A stretch of DNA of 20,000 nucleotides from an uncultured virus (IMG/VR IMGVR_UViG_3300032241_001451) (IMGVR_UViG_3300032241_001451), one strand, 5' to 3'. Shown: positions 4,868 through 20,000, counted from the stretch's first letter. Translations and numbers: made by a program. The notes: generated by a model from the sequence alone, not told the origin.

Positions 4868-5136
4868 CATTGCCATCCAAGAAGAAAAAAGTGTACGGGC
4901 CGTACAAAGATAAAAACAAGGGCGGACGCACAATGATGGTCGAGTACGACCCTAAGACTCAAAAGACCACATCGACTCATGAGGCACGTTACAAGAAGGA
5001 AAAGTCGCTGGGGCGCACACTCAAGAAAGATGAGCACGTCGACCACAAAGACAATAACAAACATAACAATGGTTCGAAGAACCTCCAGGTGATGAAGGCG
5101 TCTAAAAATATTGGCAAAGGTAACAAGAACCGATGA
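4864..5136 (+). CDS. small HNH-motif protein
   Basis: LGRTLKKDEHVDHKDNNKHNNGSKNLQVM is an HNH signature. Confidence 0.8.
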   Translation: MTLPSKKKKVYGPYKDKNKGGRTMMVEYDPKTQKTTSTHEARYKKEKSLGRTLKKDEHVDHKDNNKHNNGSKNLQVMKASKNIGKGNKNR

Positions 5137-5291
5137 GCGCCATTGACGATGCTAAAGAACTCTGGAAGTCACAAGAATTAGATGAAGAGTGTTCTCCTAA
5201 CAAGGTATGTAAGAACATGAAGGACGTCACCTACGGCTTATCTGCCGCAGATTGGAAGTCTATGCTCCAAAAAGAAGGTAAGTGGAAATGA
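5133..5291 (+). CDS. hypothetical protein, 52 aa (MSAIDDAKELWKSQ...)
   Basis: Manual translation; ATGA overlaps at both ends. Confidence 0.65.
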   Translation: MSAIDDAKELWKSQELDEECSPNKVCKNMKDVTYGLSAADWKSMLQKEGKWK

Positions 5292-6347: not shown

Positions 6348-6640
6348 GTAAGGCAAAAGAAAAGATTGAACAAAAGCAGATGGAGGCAAATGCCTTTATT
6401 TTGCAGACAAAAGAAGAACGCGCTAAAGCACGTTGGGAAGATGCACAATTAAAAGCGGCAACTGCACAATCGGTGTTAGATTACGCCATTGAACAATACG
6501 AAGCACATAAAGAAGAATTGGAAAAAGACATTATTACACAGACAGAAGAGCAGATTACGGCTCGCACTACACAGATTAGAGAATTTCTCATGTCTGAAAA
6601 AGACATTTACTTAGAATCTATGGGCATTCAAGCAGACTAA
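6344..6640 (+). CDS. hypothetical coiled-coil protein
   Basis: ATGA overlap; E/K/Q/A-rich helical composition. Confidence 0.75.
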   Translation: MSKAKEKIEQKQMEANAFILQTKEERAKARWEDAQLKAATAQSVLDYAIEQYEAHKEELEKDIITQTEEQITARTTQIREFLMSEKDIYLESMGIQAD

Positions 6641-6813
6641 CCGCCTGTTTTATAAAAGCCATTTCCCTTAAACTGTAAACCAAAAGGTGTGTACACACGG
6701 GTTAATGAGTAACCGCATGATGGGCAAGGGTATCTAGACTCTTCAGCGTGGATGCTACGTTCGTGTTCAATAGTAATATCACACGTTATACATGAGTATT
6801 CGTATTTAGGCAT
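6637..6813 (-). CDS. FmdB-family zinc-ribbon protein, 58 aa
   Basis: MPKYEYSCITC...CPSCG...FKGNGFYKT signature; start reassigned to ATG 6813. Confidence 0.85.
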   Translation of the reverse strand: MPKYEYSCITCDITIEHERSIHAEESRYPCPSCGYSLTRVYTPFGLQFKGNGFYKTGG

Positions 6814-7321
6814 GGACTGGCGCAAACTCTGCGACGGGATGTAGCAGTGATTGTGGAACATACACGTTCCCATTGTCGTCTTGTTCAAAGACTCCTTCAC
6901 GTGCATCACGTATCTTGATAGCACCTAGTAGATAGACAATGTTTTCATTCTTCTCATCTACGCAGCCAAGTACTGCCACTTTGTTAATGGCATCTGTATT
7001 ACGAATAGTTAACTGCCCTTTTGTTGTTCTGGCACGTCTTACCTCAAAGTATGGTTCAACATCTGGTAATCCCTTATGTTCGCCATGTTCTGCAAGGTCC
7101 CAATCTTCACTGTTCCATTGAGTTCCATAGTAAGTGGCAACTGCACACTCAACTAAGCAACCCTTAATGTCACCATCAAATGCGGTGTCATAGGCTGTAA
7201 AGCGATGAGTAGAGAAGCGCTCCCCTGTAATTGGGTCACGATGGCGCCATTGGCGTTTAATACCTGCTGTATAGGCTCTAATCATTTGTGATTCGGTTAG
7301 TTTAATTATTTCCATCTTCAT
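6806..7321 (-). CDS. PD-(D/E)XK-like phage protein, paralog 3
   Basis: GCLVECAVA...PDVEPYFEVRR...VLG...LLGA...YVPQSLLHP. Confidence 0.7.
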   Translation of the reverse strand: MKMEIIKLTESQMIRAYTAGIKRQWRHRDPITGERFSTHRFTAYDTAFDGDIKGCLVECAVATYYGTQWNSEDWDLAEHGEHKGLPDVEPYFEVRRARTTKGQLTIRNTDAINKVAVLGCVDEKNENIVYLLGAIKIRDAREGVFEQDDNGNVYVPQSLLHPVAEFAPVHA

Positions 7322-7772
7322 ACTCCATATCGTTTAATTCTCCAGTTACGTATTTAACACGCCAACTATTTTGCTGATGAGATGTTAACCGCCTGTGGCA
7401 ATTGCAACATCTTACTTCGCCCTTTGTTAATTCTTCTTTTATTCTTTCTATAGATACTGCATCTCGTATGGCTTCATTTAAGCCAAACTCCTTGCCTATT
7501 ACATGGTCAAACTCTAGGACCAGAATATCATCTTCCCCACAATCTACACAAGGATTGGAGGAGTAAAAGTCACCTAAAAACTGATGAATAGATTTTTTTC
7601 TTATTTTGCGATTTTTATAGATATTGGCCTGTGTATCTAAACGAGTATCTTCATAAAACTCTCGTTGATACTCACCTTGACAAGGTTTGCAATATGGCTG
7701 AACGCCAGATTCCCTCTTCTTATTAAACTCAGTTAGAGGTTTTTCTATCTTGCATCTGTTGCATGTCTTCAT
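7302..7772 (-). CDS. HNH-type (homing) endonuclease with an N-terminal zinc finger
   Basis: MKTCNRCKIEKPLTEF...CKPC...CVDCGE...LEFDHV...CCNCHR; start reassigned to ATG 7772. Confidence 0.85.
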   Translation of the reverse strand: MKTCNRCKIEKPLTEFNKKRESGVQPYCKPCQGEYQREFYEDTRLDTQANIYKNRKIRKKSIHQFLGDFYSSNPCVDCGEDDILVLEFDHVIGKEFGLNEAIRDAVSIERIKEELTKGEVRCCNCHRRLTSHQQNSWRVKYVTGELNDMEYEDGNN

Positions 7773-7911
7773 GGTCTGTCTTTCTCTCGGTATAGGAGCC
7801 CCTATGCTTCTGCTCACAATACCTTGCCATGGACGCAACGACAAATCCTGTCCCACACACGGAACAGTAGTAGTCTTTCCAGCGAGTATCTATGACACAT
7901 ATTATGCACAT
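7729..7911 (-). CDS. small zinc-finger protein (CSVCG...FVVASMARYCEQKH); start uncertain
   Basis: CxxC...CExxH pattern; first gene of the minus-strand block. Confidence 0.55.
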   Translation of the reverse strand: MCIICVIDTRWKDYYCSVCGTGFVVASMARYCEQKHRGSYTERKTDHEDMQQMQDRKTSN

Positions 7912-13460: not shown

Positions 13461-14218
13461 TGCCACTAGATGACCGTGGTAATCCACAAATTGATTTTGT
13501 ATACGGCAATATCCCTATGCAACCAAACTATGCAACAGATGCAATGGCGGAGTTTCGTCGTGGAGAAGGCTACTATCCAGGTAATGGTGAGTCCGAATAC
13601 TACGTTGATGGACACGCCACTGTTTCAGACTGGGGAGACCCAACATACTTCCCCGCTGACTATCTAAAGCCATCCCAATACCTTGATGGTCACGACAGCC
13701 ATGTTATTGATTTACGTCAATGGAACAACTTTCCTCAACATGACCCAAATACTGGATTCCAAAGCACTGTTAACTGGTGGCTTGACGGAGTTCCTGCAAC
13801 TCAATTTCCAAACCTTATGGGAAAAAAACTAGAAGATGCAATTAAATCTTTACGCGAAGTTGGAGTTGCAGAAAACTTTTTGCAAGACACATTAACTGAC
13901 GCTACAAATCCTTATGATTCTGGGACTTGGTTGCCAACTAGCGGTGCTGTTATTTGGAAGTACCTTGCACCAGACACAGTAATCGGAACTCATTGGGATG
14001 GAAGAGATTGGCTTGCGTCTGAAGCAGAAGGCCTTGTAGTAGATGCAAACCAGTATCCAGGAAATGTGGTTCCTATTGGTTCTTACTGGTATGACGGAAC
14101 AAACTATTACAACTCTTCTGACCCAACTCAAGAAGGTCTTGCATTCCCTTATTGGTTATCATTTGCAGTACTACAAACAAAAGACCCTCTTAAAAACTCA
14201 TGGAATTGGTGGAACTAA
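13460..14218 (+). CDS. PASTA-like domain protein, paralog A
   Basis: N-terminal DDRGNPQIDFVYGNIPMQPN shared with 14430; FPNLMGKKLEDAIKSLREVG...GLVV...PGNVVPIG. Confidence 0.7.
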   Translation: MPLDDRGNPQIDFVYGNIPMQPNYATDAMAEFRRGEGYYPGNGESEYYVDGHATVSDWGDPTYFPADYLKPSQYLDGHDSHVIDLRQWNNFPQHDPNTGFQSTVNWWLDGVPATQFPNLMGKKLEDAIKSLREVGVAENFLQDTLTDATNPYDSGTWLPTSGAVIWKYLAPDTVIGTHWDGRDWLASEAEGLVVDANQYPGNVVPIGSYWYDGTNYYNSSDPTQEGLAFPYWLSFAVLQTKDPLKNSWNWWN

Positions 14219-14220
14219 TC

Positions 14221-14379
14221 ATGGCTAAAAATTATGAAGTAAAGTGCAAGTGTGGATTAAAAGACGTTGTTGAAGCGGGTCTTCAAGACGCACTTAAGCG
14301 TTGCCCAGATTGCAAAGACCTTCCTATTCAGCGTGTGAAGTTGGCTGCTGAAGCATCCACTTCTTGGGCAAAGAAATAG
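14221..14379 (+). CDS. small zinc-ribbon protein, 52 aa (MAKNYEVKCKCG...RCPDC)
   Basis: Manual translation; starts 2 nt after the upstream stop. Confidence 0.7.
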   Translation: MAKNYEVKCKCGLKDVVEAGLQDALKRCPDCKDLPIQRVKLAAEASTSWAKK

Positions 14380-14382
14380 TAT

Positions 14383-14405
14383 TCCCTTAGACGTAAGGGA
14401 TTTTT
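14383..14405 (+). terminator. intrinsic terminator candidate
   Basis: TCCCTTA-GACG-TAAGGGA followed by TTTTT. Confidence 0.65.
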
Positions 14406-14429
14406 ACACTCTCTAGAGAAAGAAGAAAA

Positions 14430-14861
14430 ATGGCAACCAATCAAGATGGTCATCTAGTCGATGACAAAGGAAATGTTGCGGTTGATTTTGTGTGGGGAAA
14501 CCTTCCACTTCAACCTAACGATATTCGCCGCGACAATGGCGGAGCAAATCTAGATTACACACTAGATAACCACAATATTGTAGAAGATGGCTGGAATGGC
14601 TATCCTCTTTATACACCAAATACAACAGGAACACAGTCTGGTGGCGTTGATTACGTCAATGTTCCAAATGTACTTGGTCAACTTCTTGCTGATGCAAGAA
14701 ACACACTTGTTGATTTTGAACTTGTAGTTGGTACTACAACAACAACTGCAACAGGAGCAACAGCAGATAATACTGGTACAGTTCAGACTCAATCAGTTGC
14801 TTCTGGAACAAGCGTTGCAGTAGGAACTACTGTAAATCTTGTTACATACCTTTACTCATAA
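14430..14861 (+). CDS. PASTA-domain protein, paralog B
   Basis: DDKGNVAVDFVWGNLPLQPN; VPNVLGQLLADARNTL...GTVQTQSVASGTSVAVGTTVNL. Confidence 0.8.
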   Translation: MATNQDGHLVDDKGNVAVDFVWGNLPLQPNDIRRDNGGANLDYTLDNHNIVEDGWNGYPLYTPNTTGTQSGGVDYVNVPNVLGQLLADARNTLVDFELVVGTTTTTATGATADNTGTVQTQSVASGTSVAVGTTVNLVTYLYS

Positions 14862-14874
14862 TTTAAGGGTTTAA

Positions 14875-16253: not shown

Positions 16254-17837
16254 ATGGAAAACTATAACGAAGAAAAATTTGAAGAGATAAACCCCGAATT
16301 TTATCTTCAAGATGAGACACCTGTTGAAGAAGAGGTTATCAATGACCTGGATGAACTTTCTCAAGATTTTGTAAATAAACTTATAGATAAGATTATGGAC
16401 TTTCTTGTAGTCCTAGTTGGTCATGACTTGCACCCTTATCAAAAACCTTTAGCACGTCGCATTATTGAGTCTGTCGTCATTAACGATGGTGAAGAAATTA
16501 CAGCCCTTGCTTCCCGTCAGTCAGGTAAATCTGAAACAGTGGCAGATACAGTAGCGACATTGATGGTTCTTTTACCTCGGCTTGCTAAGTTATACCCAGA
16601 CCTTCTTGGAAAATTTAAAGATGGTTTATGGGTCGGGTTGTTTGCTCCAACAGAAGGACAGGCTGAAACTTTATTTGGGCGTACCGTCACACGTCTTACA
16701 TCTGAGCGTGCTATTGAGATTATGGATGACCCAGAGATTGATGATAGCGCTGCACGTGTAGGTGGAGTTACTCGTCAAATTAAACTTAAGAAATCTGGTT
16801 CTACTATTACGATGATGACTGCAAACCCTCGTGCAAAAATTGAATCTAAGTCTTTCCATGTTGTTGTTATTGATGAGTGTCAAGAAGCAGATGACTTTGT
16901 TGTGTCTAAGTCAATCTCACCTATGCTTGCTTATTATGCTGGAACAATGGTTAAAACAGGTACTCCTACAACCAGTAAGAATAACTTCTATAGAAGTATC
17001 CAACTTAACCGTAGACGCCAAACTGCACGTGGTGCACGTCAAAACCATTTTCAATGGGATTGGAAAGATGTAGCAAAAGTTCAAGCAAATTACGAAAAGT
17101 TCATACGTAAAGAGATGCTTCGTATTGGTGAAGACTCTGACGAGTTTCAGATGTCGTATAACTGTAAGTGGTTGTTGGAACGTGGAATGTTTGTTACTTC
17201 AACAATCATGGATGAACTTGGAGATACCTCTCAAGAAATTGTTAAAGCCTGGCATAAAACTCCAGTAGTAGTTGGCGTTGACCCAGCACGTAAGACTGAC
17301 TCAACAGTAGTAACTGTTGTGTGGGTAGATTGGGATAGACCAGATGAGTTTGGGTATTTTGACCACCGTGTCTTGAATTGGCTAGAAATTCAAGGAGACG
17401 ATTGGGAAGAGCAGTACTTTCAAATTGTTAACTTCTTAGAAAATTATGATGTCCTTGCCGTAGGCGTAGACGCTAACGGTGTGGGCGATGCTGTAGCGCA
17501 AAGATTAAAACTTCTCTTGCCACGTGCTGAGGTAAGTTCAATTACTTCTAGCCCATCAGAGCAATCTAAGAGATGGAAGCACCTACAAGCCCTTATTCAA
17601 CGCAAAATGATTAGTTGGCCTGCTCATGCAAAAACTCGGCGCCTTCGTACTTTCAAAAGGTTTTATCAACAAATGGTTGATGCCGAAGTTACATTTAAAG
17701 GGCCAAATTTCCTTGTAGCGGCTCCTGAAGAAACATATGCCCATGATGACTTTGTAGATTCACTTTCTATTGCTTGTAGCCTTACCCAAAACCTAGTAAT
17801 GCCAGAAGTAGTGGCTTCTAGTAATCCCTTCTTTTAA
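16254..17837 (+). CDS. terL: terminase large subunit
   Basis: Walker A ASRQSGKSE, Walker B VVVIDECQE, coupling motif TGTP, RNase H-like GVDPAR...HDDFVDS; upstream of the portal. Confidence 0.95.
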   Translation: MENYNEEKFEEINPEFYLQDETPVEEEVINDLDELSQDFVNKLIDKIMDFLVVLVGHDLHPYQKPLARRIIESVVINDGEEITALASRQSGKSETVADTVATLMVLLPRLAKLYPDLLGKFKDGLWVGLFAPTEGQAETLFGRTVTRLTSERAIEIMDDPEIDDSAARVGGVTRQIKLKKSGSTITMMTANPRAKIESKSFHVVVIDECQEADDFVVSKSISPMLAYYAGTMVKTGTPTTSKNNFYRSIQLNRRRQTARGARQNHFQWDWKDVAKVQANYEKFIRKEMLRIGEDSDEFQMSYNCKWLLERGMFVTSTIMDELGDTSQEIVKAWHKTPVVVGVDPARKTDSTVVTVVWVDWDRPDEFGYFDHRVLNWLEIQGDDWEEQYFQIVNFLENYDVLAVGVDANGVGDAVAQRLKLLLPRAEVSSITSSPSEQSKRWKHLQALIQRKMISWPAHAKTRRLRTFKRFYQQMVDAEVTFKGPNFLVAAPEETYAHDDFVDSLSIACSLTQNLVMPEVVASSNPFF

Positions 17838-18378: not shown

Positions 18379-18630
18379 ATGGCAAGCAAACCAGCCAACC
18401 CAAAGATGTGGGCGATGATTATTGCGCAAGCAAAAGCCAAATACTCCAATTACCCAAATCCAGGTGCATCACATTGGGTACATAAAACGTATGTTGAACA
18501 TGGCGGTCGCTTTATTGAAACAACAGAAGCAGACCGTCGCAAAGGTATTGAAAAGAAGAAGGCAGAACGTAAGAAGACTAAAGAGTCTGTTACCGATAAG
18601 AAGCCTTCTAAGAAAGATAAGAAGAAGTAA
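18379..18630 (+). CDS. small basic phage protein
   Basis: GAGGAG SD; NPKMW...AKAKY..YP...WV...Y...GG.F; Lys-rich tail. Confidence 0.8.
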   Translation: MASKPANPKMWAMIIAQAKAKYSNYPNPGASHWVHKTYVEHGGRFIETTEADRRKGIEKKKAERKKTKESVTDKKPSKKDKKK

Positions 18631-18737
18631 TGACCACTGCTAGTATTACAGGAATTAAGACCTGTTCTAAGTGTGGCATTGAAAAACCTTTAAATGGGGT
18701 TTGTAACCTCCATAAGATTAAGGAGGTGATGCCATGA
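18630..18737 (+). pseudogene. collapsed HNH/homing endonuclease remnant, 35 aa (MTTASITGIKTCSKCGIEKPLNGVCNLHKIKEVMP)
   Basis: KTCSKCGIEKPL matches the N-terminus KTCNRCKIEKPL of the HNH at 7302..7772 and is fused to a CNxxK C-terminal piece; TAATG and ATGA couplings are intact. Confidence 0.65.
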
Positions 18738-20000
18738 GTTTCCTAGATTTTTCTCCGCCCTCTTATAGAGCGGCGTCTTCTGATTTAACAATTTCTATTT
18801 CCCCACTGGGGTTAGTTGAATTAGCAGACGAGGAATTCGAATGAAGTCCATGGTCCTCGCCTAAACCGTTATTCACTTAATTGGGCGATGTACTTGGGAC
18901 ACCATTGGGGTTATCGTAGAGAAACTGGCGAAATGCAAATCGCACTTAACTACTACCGTGCATTTAATGACTTCTTAGCACGCTTTACTTTTGGTAAAGG
19001 CGTGCATTTTCGTTCGCCAAAAGCAACGGAAGCAATTGTTCCTGACCGCTTAGAGCGTGTGTGGGAAGTTGATAATGACAAGATGCGTGTGCTACTTGAA
19101 ATGGCACAGCAAGGCGGAATTACTGGCGATGTATTTGTTAAAGTTGCATACGAAGAGCCATGGGTAGATTCAGCAGGAGGAAAACATCCTGGTCGTGTTC
19201 GTATCCTTCCTATGAACTCATCATTTTGTTTCCCTGAGTTTCACCCACACGACCGTACACGTCTACTTCGTTTTAAGCAGAAGTATCGTTTCTGGGGAAC
19301 TTCTCTTGAAGGAACGCGCCAAGTATTCACGTATACTGAGATTCTTACTGACGATGTTATTGAAGAATACATTAACGATGAGTTGATTGACTCACGCCCA
19401 AATCCACTTGGAGTAGTTCCAGTGGTGCATATTCCTAATGTGCCTGTATCAGGCTCACCATGGGGACTAGCAGATGCACATGACATCATTACTATTAACC
19501 GTGCTTACAATGAAATCTCTACAGATATAGCAGACATCATTAACTATCACGCTTCTCCTGTGACAGTTATTATCGGTGCTAAAGCATCTAACCTTGAAAA
19601 GGGCGCCAAGAAAGTATGGGGCGGTCTTCCAAAGGATTCACAAGTATTTAACCTTGAAGGTGGAGCATCAGGAATTGATGGAGCGCTTAAATATTTAGAC
19701 CTTCTTAAGACGTCTATGCACGAGATTATGAACATCCCAGAGACTGCTCTTGGACAAGTTCAGCCAATTTCAAATACCTCTGGTGTTGCTCTTTCTATTC
19801 AGTATCAGCCATTGATGAACCGCTACAGTCAAAAGGTTGCTCAATACGGTAAAGGCATTGAGAAGATTAACGAACTCGTACTTCGTACTCTTGCCTTCAA
19901 AGAGCCAGATACTTTCTTATACAACCCAGATACAGATGGACCAATTAAGCCAGGTCAGTTGACACAACTTGACCCTAATGACTCTATCACCTACATGAAC
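18734..20000 (+). CDS. portal protein (partial); frame interrupted at 18842
   Basis: AGGAGGTGA SD and ATG 18734 give 36 codons (MSFLDFSPPSY...LADEEFE) then TGA. A second frame is open from 18825 to the window end (EVHGPRLNRY...NPLGVVPVVHIPN...SPWG...SNTSGVAL), with SPP1 gp6-like portal motifs. It follows terL. Confidence 0.85.

Follow-up and report, generated by a model that had tools for sequence, protein, structure and literature searches.

To our knowledge, translational bypassing with a known use is limited to very few cases, namely phage T4 gene 60 and its homologues, inserts in yeast mitochondria, and the candidate gaps of Streptomyces phage phiHau3. Here we describe a stretch of 20,000 nucleotides (nt) from an uncultured virus (IMGVR_UViG_3300032241_001451; the whole stretch is called the window below), in which the gene for the portal protein is broken by four nucleotides that are probably skipped by a ribosome hop and that, on the same reading, belong to an HNH homing-endonuclease cassette decayed in the window to a 35-amino-acid (aa) remnant.

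In the T4 gene 39/mobA/gene 60 region, an HNH homing endonuclease is associated with a 50-nt bypass (bioRxiv 10.1101/2022.08.31.505936; PMC5009743; citing Huang 1988 and Bonocora 2011). The bypass sequence of the MobA element protects carriers from the endonuclease, and it often outlasts the decay or loss of the latter (bioRxiv 10.1101/2022.08.31.505936). The large terminase gene of phiHau3 and two prophage terminase genes contain candidate inserts of 10 nt and 7 nt after UUA (PMC10732093; citing Smith 2013), and the junction peptide of the phiHau3 gap was detected by mass spectrometry in E. coli (PMC10732093). Synthetic stop-hops constructed in E. coli place a stop codon between two matched codons, so that 9 nt yield one amino acid (Weiss et al. 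1987 via PMC5009743); according to a 2016 review, no natural in-frame stop-hop was known (PMC5009743).

Of the published cases, the T4 cassette and the candidate phiHau3 gaps come nearest to the portal locus and its relatives. As in T4 mobA/gene 60, an HNH gene immediately precedes an essential gene, and a putatively untranslated insert is located in the 5′ part of the latter, with matched take-off and landing codons and a stop right behind the take-off codon; endonuclease, recoded homologous segment and gap travel as one, and, as seen in the window, the endonuclease decays or goes while the gap persists. In contrast to the 50-nt gap of T4, the gaps here measure 4–10 nt, and a search revealed no take-off stem-loop; they interrupt an unsplit portal gene, in which many gaps occur at two hot spots, as against one conserved gap in T4. 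Note that the HNH proteins were likened to MobA by cassette layout, not by protein homology. By this analogy, we regard the portal gaps as a miniature, stop-triggered counterpart of the T4 mobA/gene 60 cassette. The phiHau3 gaps are likewise very short and located in an essential morphogenesis gene, that of an actinophage, with the junction defined by unbroken homologues; there, however, decoding is slowed in the A site by UUA, a rare sense codon, and the proposed role is regulatory, whereas here the codon is always a stop and the gaps are linked to HNH genes.

The elements of the window locus are listed in Table 1. The first-pass annotation had described a portal gene broken at GAA-T-GAA, and all of its elements (the Shine-Dalgarno (SD) sequence, ATG 18734, GAA/TGA/GAA, TAG 18822–18824, GAGG and ATG 18888) were confirmed in position. 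The first three bases of the gap constitute an in-frame TGA stop (18842–18844) and the last three the landing codon GAA (18843–18845). The long frame starting at this GAA is open to the end of the window and closed upstream by the TAG; its first in-frame ATG is that at 18888, with no SD before it. The product read through with a step over TGAA matched PF05133 (SPP1_portal, SPP1 Gp6-like) with 78.9 bits (cut-off 25.5, E 5e-22). Part 1 of the gene shares 35 of 36 residues with the unbroken portal of a relative (L012), whose residues 36–421 are covered by one tblastn segment with 91% identity and without a further break; the relatives' portal is 578 aa in all.

Table 1. Coordinates of the features of the portal locus in the window.
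Feature	Coordinates	Strand	Basis or remark
Upstream gene, 83-aa basic protein; 5′ flank of the cassette insertion point	18379..18630	+	open reading frame (ORF) call
35-aa remnant ORF of type-A HNH homing endonuclease	18630..18737	+	TGA overlaps portal ATG
Mobile cassette tract: HNH remnant plus first ~170 nt of portal gene, synonymously recoded	18630..18905 (approximate)	+	3′ limit taken from the L107/L118 comparison
Shine-Dalgarno AGGAGG of portal gene	18721..18726	+	sequence; 7 nt before ATG 18734
Portal gene part 1, codons 1–36 (MSFLDF...LADEEFE)	18734..18841	+	compared with L012
GAGG, SD-like tetramer 5 nt ahead of take-off codon; candidate stimulator	18830..18833	+	sequence
Take-off codon GAA (Glu36)	18839..18841	+	sequence
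4-nt coding gap TGAA	18842..18845	+	no counterpart in 77/80 relatives
Portal gene part 2, from GTC (Val) past the window end	18846..20000	+	tblastn vs L012, PF05133

A scan of viral contigs yielded 80 related loci, 77 of which read ...DEEFEVHGPRLNRY / ...ADEEFEVHGPRLNRY... in a single ORF, with the codon pattern GAR GAR TTY GAR GTN CAY (= ...DEEFEVHG...); 70 of these unbroken ORFs are complete (570–589 aa) and 7 run off their locus. The contiguous sequence DEEFE-VHGPRLNRY, which the first-pass annotation had given for homologous portals, was thus correct, and since 77 of the 80 relatives are contiguous here, the window reads GAA[TGAA]GTC, that is, with a 4-nt insert.

The insert is not an error, because it is identical in several contigs and in runs of 2012, 2016 and 2022. 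The same insert-bearing sequence, GAATTCGAATGAAGTC, occurs in the nearest record used for comparison (G001, 99% identical to the window) and in L049, L098 and L139. The site is crossed gap-free, with no indels listed, by Logan contigs from three runs, X1 (2022, possibly the source), X3 (2012) and X5 (2016); this check was made at the level of Logan contigs, where minority variants at 18842–18845 are possible, and the contigs of run X12 do not cover 18810–18911. In contigs at a depth of ~30, from runs separated by ten years, the gapped form predominates or is the only one present. Metagenome assemblies often contain single-base frame errors, and one probable example was found in the family; however, an insert of 4 nt outside any homopolymer, identical in the window, four other contigs and the Logan contigs of three years, leaves a sequencing or assembly artefact a practically negligible probability.

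That probable example is in L109 (~2385–2396; contig shared with L100 and L141): one T is missing from a run of Ts (GTATTTGGA to GTATTGGA), which disrupts the portal frame a second time, near residue 84, with no stop-plus-landing pattern; this second break is probably an assembly error. It is the only other frame break seen in the broken portals; no portal break beyond the micro-gaps was found in the window, L001, L049, L071 or L081.

Other genomes interrupted at this place, for which the first-pass annotation had proposed to look, were found in number. Viral and metagenome contigs were searched with gapped patterns at both sites, and loci found via the HNH protein were added; after removal of loci from the same contig, 40 broken contigs (window counted) with 22 insert types of 4–10 nt remained, at two hot spots of the portal gene (Table 2). 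Site 1 comprises positions near Glu34, Phe35, Glu36 and His38, and site 2 those near Tyr52 and Gly54. Three of the 80 related viral loci were broken, and two of them (L071 and L081) differ from the window: their site-1 insert, in GAG GAA[TAGCCCCGAA]TTC, is located six bases upstream of the window's gap, and a second, in-frame insert follows Gly54.

Table 2. The 22 insert types of the portal gene (inserts in square brackets).
Site	Insert with flanking codons	Length (nt)	Contig or remark
1	GAA[TGAA]GTC	4	window's type
1	GAA[TAGTGAA]GTT	7	
1	GAA[TAGTGAG]GTC	7	
1	GAA[TAGCGAA]GTY	7	
1	GAG[TAAGTAG]GTT	7	L085
1	GAA[TAGTGTT]GTC	7	L144
1	GAA[TAACCGAA]GTC	8	
1	GAA[TAGCCCGAA]GTT	9	
1	GAA[TAATAA]GTC	6	L100
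1	GAA[TAGCCCCGAA]TTC	10	L071, L081
1	TTC[TAGCGATTC]GAA	9	L093
1	TTC[TGACGATTT]GAA	9	
1	TTC[TGAAGTTT]GAA	8	
1	TTC[TGACGTTA]GAA	8	
1	TTC[TGACTC]GAG	6	L094
1	CAT[TAGCAC]GGC	6	L147
2	TAT[TGAC]YTR	4	
2	TAT[TAAC]TTA	4	
2	TAT[TAGGTAC]YTA	7	
2	TAT[TAGTTTAC]CTA	8	
2	GGT[TGAATAGGT]CAT	9	L071, L081
2	GGT[TGAATAGGC]CAC	9	

All 22 types have an in-frame stop (TGA, TAG or TAA) right behind the last canonical codon. When the landing codon was defined as the last three bases of the insert, where the peptidyl-tRNA must sit for correct resumption, it equalled the take-off codon in 8 types and was a synonymous codon, decoded by one and the same tRNA, in another 7; the mismatch was at position 1 only in 5 types and at position 3 only in 1, and one type (L144, on a 1.1-kb contig) was unmatched. 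The types measure 4 nt (3 types), 6 nt (3), 7 nt (6), 8 nt (4), 9 nt (5) and 10 nt (1); 10 types are +1, 8 are in frame but with a stop, and 4 shift by +2. CAT[TAGCAC]GGC has exactly the anatomy of the synthetic stop-hops, GAA[TAATAA] and TTC[TGACTC] are near variants, and GAA-UGAA of the window is a shorter, overlapping version; whereas the synthetic stop-hops were engineered, these stand in natural essential genes.

On the reading that we prefer, the ribosome would hold peptidyl-tRNA-Glu on GAA 18839–18841 with UGA in the A site and would not terminate; the tRNA would unpair, the mRNA advance by 4 nt, and the tRNA re-pair with GAA 18843–18845, whereupon decoding would pick up at GUC 18846–18848 to give the canonical ...LADEEFE-VHGPRLNRY, with the junction peptide ...LVELADEEFEVHGPR and no extra Glu. 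This 4-nt hop from GAA to GAA over UGA, proposed in the first-pass annotation, gained support from the comparison: the predicted product has the sequence of the 77 unbroken relatives, and 21 sister inserts, including those of 6, 8 and 9 nt, share the anatomy of take-off codon, stop and landing codon. A forward slide with re-pairing of the P-site tRNA would serve 21 of the 22 types, each time giving the canonical protein; no single frameshift explains the inserts, because their sizes fall in all three frame classes.

The alternative closest to the hop is a +1 frameshift at GAA-UGA, in which the U is skipped and a fresh Glu-tRNA reads GAA 18843–18845 to give ...EFE-E-VHG.... In the programmed +1 frameshift of prfB (RF2), the A site contains a stop, and an SD-like element lies shortly upstream, at a spacing of 3 nt. 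The window has a prfB-like arrangement, with a +1 gap, a stop in the A site and the SD-like GAGG a few nucleotides upstream, but the spacing of GAGG is 5 nt, tRNA-Glu on GAA could not re-pair on AAU in the +1 frame, and the sister gaps include other frame classes. Nine of the ten +1-class types (4, 7 or 10 nt) read cleanly in the +1 frame, and the 4-nt site-2 types TAT[TGAC] and TAT[TAAC], which match poorly at landing, look more like +1 sites; however, the 12 in-frame and 8-nt types are beyond rescue by a +1 shift, as is the 7-nt type of L085, GAG[TAAGTAG]GTT, where the +1 path is blocked by TAG. Moreover, a +1 shift offers no reason for the match of landing and take-off codons in 15 of the 22 types, and the extra Glu is absent from all 77 unbroken relatives. 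We therefore consider the +1 shift unlikely, and prefer the hop for the window on account of the sister gaps (by parsimony), the inability of the GAA-decoding tRNA to re-pair on AAU, and the lack of the extra Glu in the unbroken relatives.

A suppressor or an alternative genetic code was rejected as an explanation, since all three stops are used and most gaps also shift the frame; single genes even contain two different stops (L081: TAG and TGA; L085: TAA and TGA). A scan for tRNA genes, which covered the 20,000-nt window only, found none.

Translation might instead stop at UGA and restart at ATG 18888, the first 50 residues being dispensable or the 36-aa peptide separate. ATG 18888 is in frame, and the Pfam portal match starts at residue 42, as a split or shortened portal would have it. 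Against such a restart, no SD precedes 18888, residues 37–50 (from the gap to the Met) are conserved with only synonymous change among carriers, and the site-2 gaps after Tyr52 or Gly54 would cost that start too. Four contigs have two gaps in one gene (L071, L081, L095 and L142), and a restart at Met51 cannot rescue them because the second gap lies behind it. A split portal is thus very improbable.

Several observations weigh against the hop. The hop itself and its efficiency are read from sequence comparison, and a +1 shift would also restore the frame of the window's 4-nt gap, for which the comparison by itself does not tell the two readings apart. Many insert types are related by descent and hence not independent, the landing codon is imperfect in 7 of the 22 types, one of them (L144) without a real match, and the matched flanking codons could partly reflect the origin of the inserts, for example by small duplications. 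A search for a take-off stem-loop or 5′ stimulatory structure found none, the fold of 18800–18880 having a z of −0.31. The alignment fold was weak (−7.1 kcal/mol), with a compensatory change in 3 of 20 pairs; it contains a 7-bp stem (18816–18822 / 18834–18840) with little covariation. Local hairpins were barely stronger in broken portals (mean −4.0 kcal/mol) than in unbroken ones (−2.9 kcal/mol). The efficiency of unprogrammed stop-hops in E. coli is near 1%. Such hops have been described as low-efficiency events (10.1101/2022.08.31.505936). As for the yield required, modest efficiency might suffice, because only the twelve portal copies that each virion contains are needed.

Regarding stimulators, the first-pass annotation had pointed to GAGG as a mini-SD. 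The tetramer is indeed present, and a GAGG was found at the site-1 position in 20 of the 23 site-1-broken contigs compared with 1 of 76 unbroken ones; it is thus a candidate stimulator, but this enrichment is confounded by shared cassette ancestry and may reflect hitch-hiking with the cassette. Broken and unbroken portals conserve the upstream peptide to the same degree, so this comparison cannot reveal a nascent-peptide signal.

The gaps were tightly linked to an HNH gene. The distance from the tblastn match of the upstream protein to the portal ATG was 11–117 nt in unbroken relatives and 197–823 nt in broken contigs, and the extra space in the latter is taken up by an HNH endonuclease ORF of 206–226 aa (PF14279/PF01844), the end of which overlaps the portal start. 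Two HNH types were distinguished, with a common catalytic C-terminal half and different N-terminal halves. Counts per unique contig showed that each type goes with its own site: the 13 contigs with full-length type A all had a site-1 insert and none a site-2 insert, whereas the 16 contigs with type B all had a site-2 insert and 7 of them also an insert in the site-1 region (type-B locus L121, with a portal cut at residue 31, was left out of the counts). Four contigs with a type-A remnant, window included, all had a site-1 insert (site 2: none in the window), one contig with a 27-aa trace of type B (L142) had both inserts, and among six contigs with no HNH detected, all had a site-1 insert and three a site-2 insert. 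Thus 34 of the 40 broken contigs contain a whole or remnant HNH gene, and none of the 77 unbroken relatives has room for one. Conversely, the downstream portal was broken in all 23 evaluable loci found via the HNH search.

In the window, the remnant fuses codons 1–23 of the G001 enzyme to its last 12 codons, an in-frame deletion of 534 nt with its junction near 18698 accounting for the missing part; a full 213-aa type-A HNH (PF14279/PF01844) stands in its place in G001, L049, L098 and L139. The full-length form coexists with the window's form, as seen from loose ends at 18698 in X3, X5 and X12 and from a depth-4 contig in X1. The 4-nt insert thus probably belongs to this cassette, a reading that we hold jointly with that of the hop. 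In the place of the HNH gene, L093, which is among the six contigs with no HNH detected, has an unrelated 145-aa ORF (oriented coordinates 1293–1730) before a portal with TTC[TAGCGATTC]GAA; this ORF may represent another kind of selfish gene that exploits this site. A second endonuclease-like ORF of 184 aa was found in the window at 7302–7856 (minus strand), the N-terminal part of which is like the type-A HNH N-domain (44%, 57 aa); it had no Pfam family at E 0.01, and the gene after it (6806–7321, minus strand) looks unbroken.

The cassette appears to have moved repeatedly. In a tree of portal residues 96–420 (105 rows; 4 loci with a match of <250 aa omitted), the broken portals were scattered, and the label "unbroken" had to change no fewer than 12 times, with well-supported branches forcing 10 of these changes. 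Some portal bodies were found in identical form both in cassette carriers and in cassette-free contigs (L094 = L048; L096 and L101 = L010), and others next to cassettes of either type, A or B (L106 and L107 = L118). Pairwise DNA alignments revealed that the moving unit extends from the final bases of the upstream gene through the HNH gene and on to nt ~175 of the portal gene, and that in its portal segment (from nt 1), with the micro-gaps inside, ~30% of positions are recoded while the protein is the same. The limits of the cassette were clean in L094/L048, L101/L010, L104/L041 and L107/L118, with flanks ~99–100% identical and a tract ~30% divergent. The portal of L114 is only ~61% identical to the others, yet its gap is again the 7-nt GAA[TAGCGAA]GTT, accompanied by a type-A HNH, which suggests that the cassette crosses between quite distant phages.

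Carriers are most likely made immune to their own endonuclease by the gap together with the synonymous changes in the first ~170 nt of the portal gene; the enzyme would cleave unbroken portal genes in related phages and thereby copy the cassette into them. The first-pass annotation had also suggested that the gap could set portal stoichiometry; nothing was found in favour of this, and the cassette link points to endonuclease immunity instead.

A selfish cassette might also leave the portal gene dead, in which case carriers would borrow the portal from co-infecting intact relatives or be defective remnants. Cassette-free relatives do occur in the same samples: at 18632 of the window, a contig of X3 departs straight into a differently coded portal start (ATG TCA TTT CTT GAT...), and therefore a cassette-free relative in that sample shares the upstream gene. 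Several cassette gains also look recent, as the portal bodies identical with and without a cassette indicate. However, the breaks are never random, the stop-plus-landing-codon pattern being present in all 22 types, and both portal halves are under strong purifying selection among carriers. Portal residues 1–34 are identical in 8 site-1-broken contigs despite a pS of 0.71 (~70% of synonymous sites differ), and between the type-A carriers L107 and L097, 23 of 33 codons upstream and 6 of 11 downstream of the gap differ, all synonymously. The window has outlived its HNH with both portal halves still intact, and its gapped form is the prevailing one at depth in runs a decade apart. On this evidence, a dead portal gene is quite improbable, and the bridging of the gap by a hop is preferred.

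The closest cultured relatives of the portal are Streptomyces phages of the BRock group (~113 kb), which have unbroken portals with ~59% identity. Related portals were also found in Actinomycetota genomes and metagenome-assembled genomes, the six relatives being five contigs of the latter and one Streptomyces chromosome. An actinobacterial host is likely, because of these cultured relatives and the portals borne by Actinomycetota. The runs in which the window occurs are labelled as freshwater or freshwater sediment metagenomes, except that three runs of study P1 are labelled just "metagenome".

Elsewhere in the window, the protein of the gene upstream of the portal had no Pfam match, and the large terminase gene precedes it at 16254–17837 (527 aa). 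In L081 (2–2092) and also L071, the contigs with a 10-nt and a 9-nt gap, the large terminase has a ~170-aa insert between ...QMSYN and CKWLLERG, beginning with CLVPTTKV and ending with ASHN, which looks like an intein; the window's terminase is without it. Compared with G001, the window contains an extra 182-aa gene at 1927–2475 and an extra segment of ~155 nt at ~5133–5288, both plain insertions, and no further micro-gaps were found by this comparison in the genes next to the two insertions. At 13462–14872, 1.4 kb stands where G001 has 0.66 kb of other sequence. The overlap of the ORFs at 6637–6924 and 6806–7321 was considered as a sign of a micro-gap and rejected, being due only to a spurious long start.

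In a literature search with subscription-only papers outside its scope, no description of this portal/HNH system was found. For the family as a whole, we lean towards the view that these are natural and efficient stop-hops: the ribosomes translating freshwater actinophage-like viruses would routinely hop 4–10 nt over stops in the portal gene, re-pairing would tolerate a mismatch at position 1, and the gaps would have arisen repeatedly as the part that confers immunity in two HNH cassette families, each with its own site. With 22 natural variants of gap length, stop, take-off codon and landing match, the family already amounts to a set of mutants from which the rules of short hops could be worked out. 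With micro-gaps linked to homing-endonuclease immunity, T4 mobA/gene 60 would cease to be a lone curiosity. Annotation pipelines label such genes as pseudogenes or assign wrong starts to them; if this reading is true, many "frameshifted" phage genes in databases would be functional, and tiny coding gaps beside homing-endonuclease genes may be a general, overlooked self-protection of selfish elements in essential genes.

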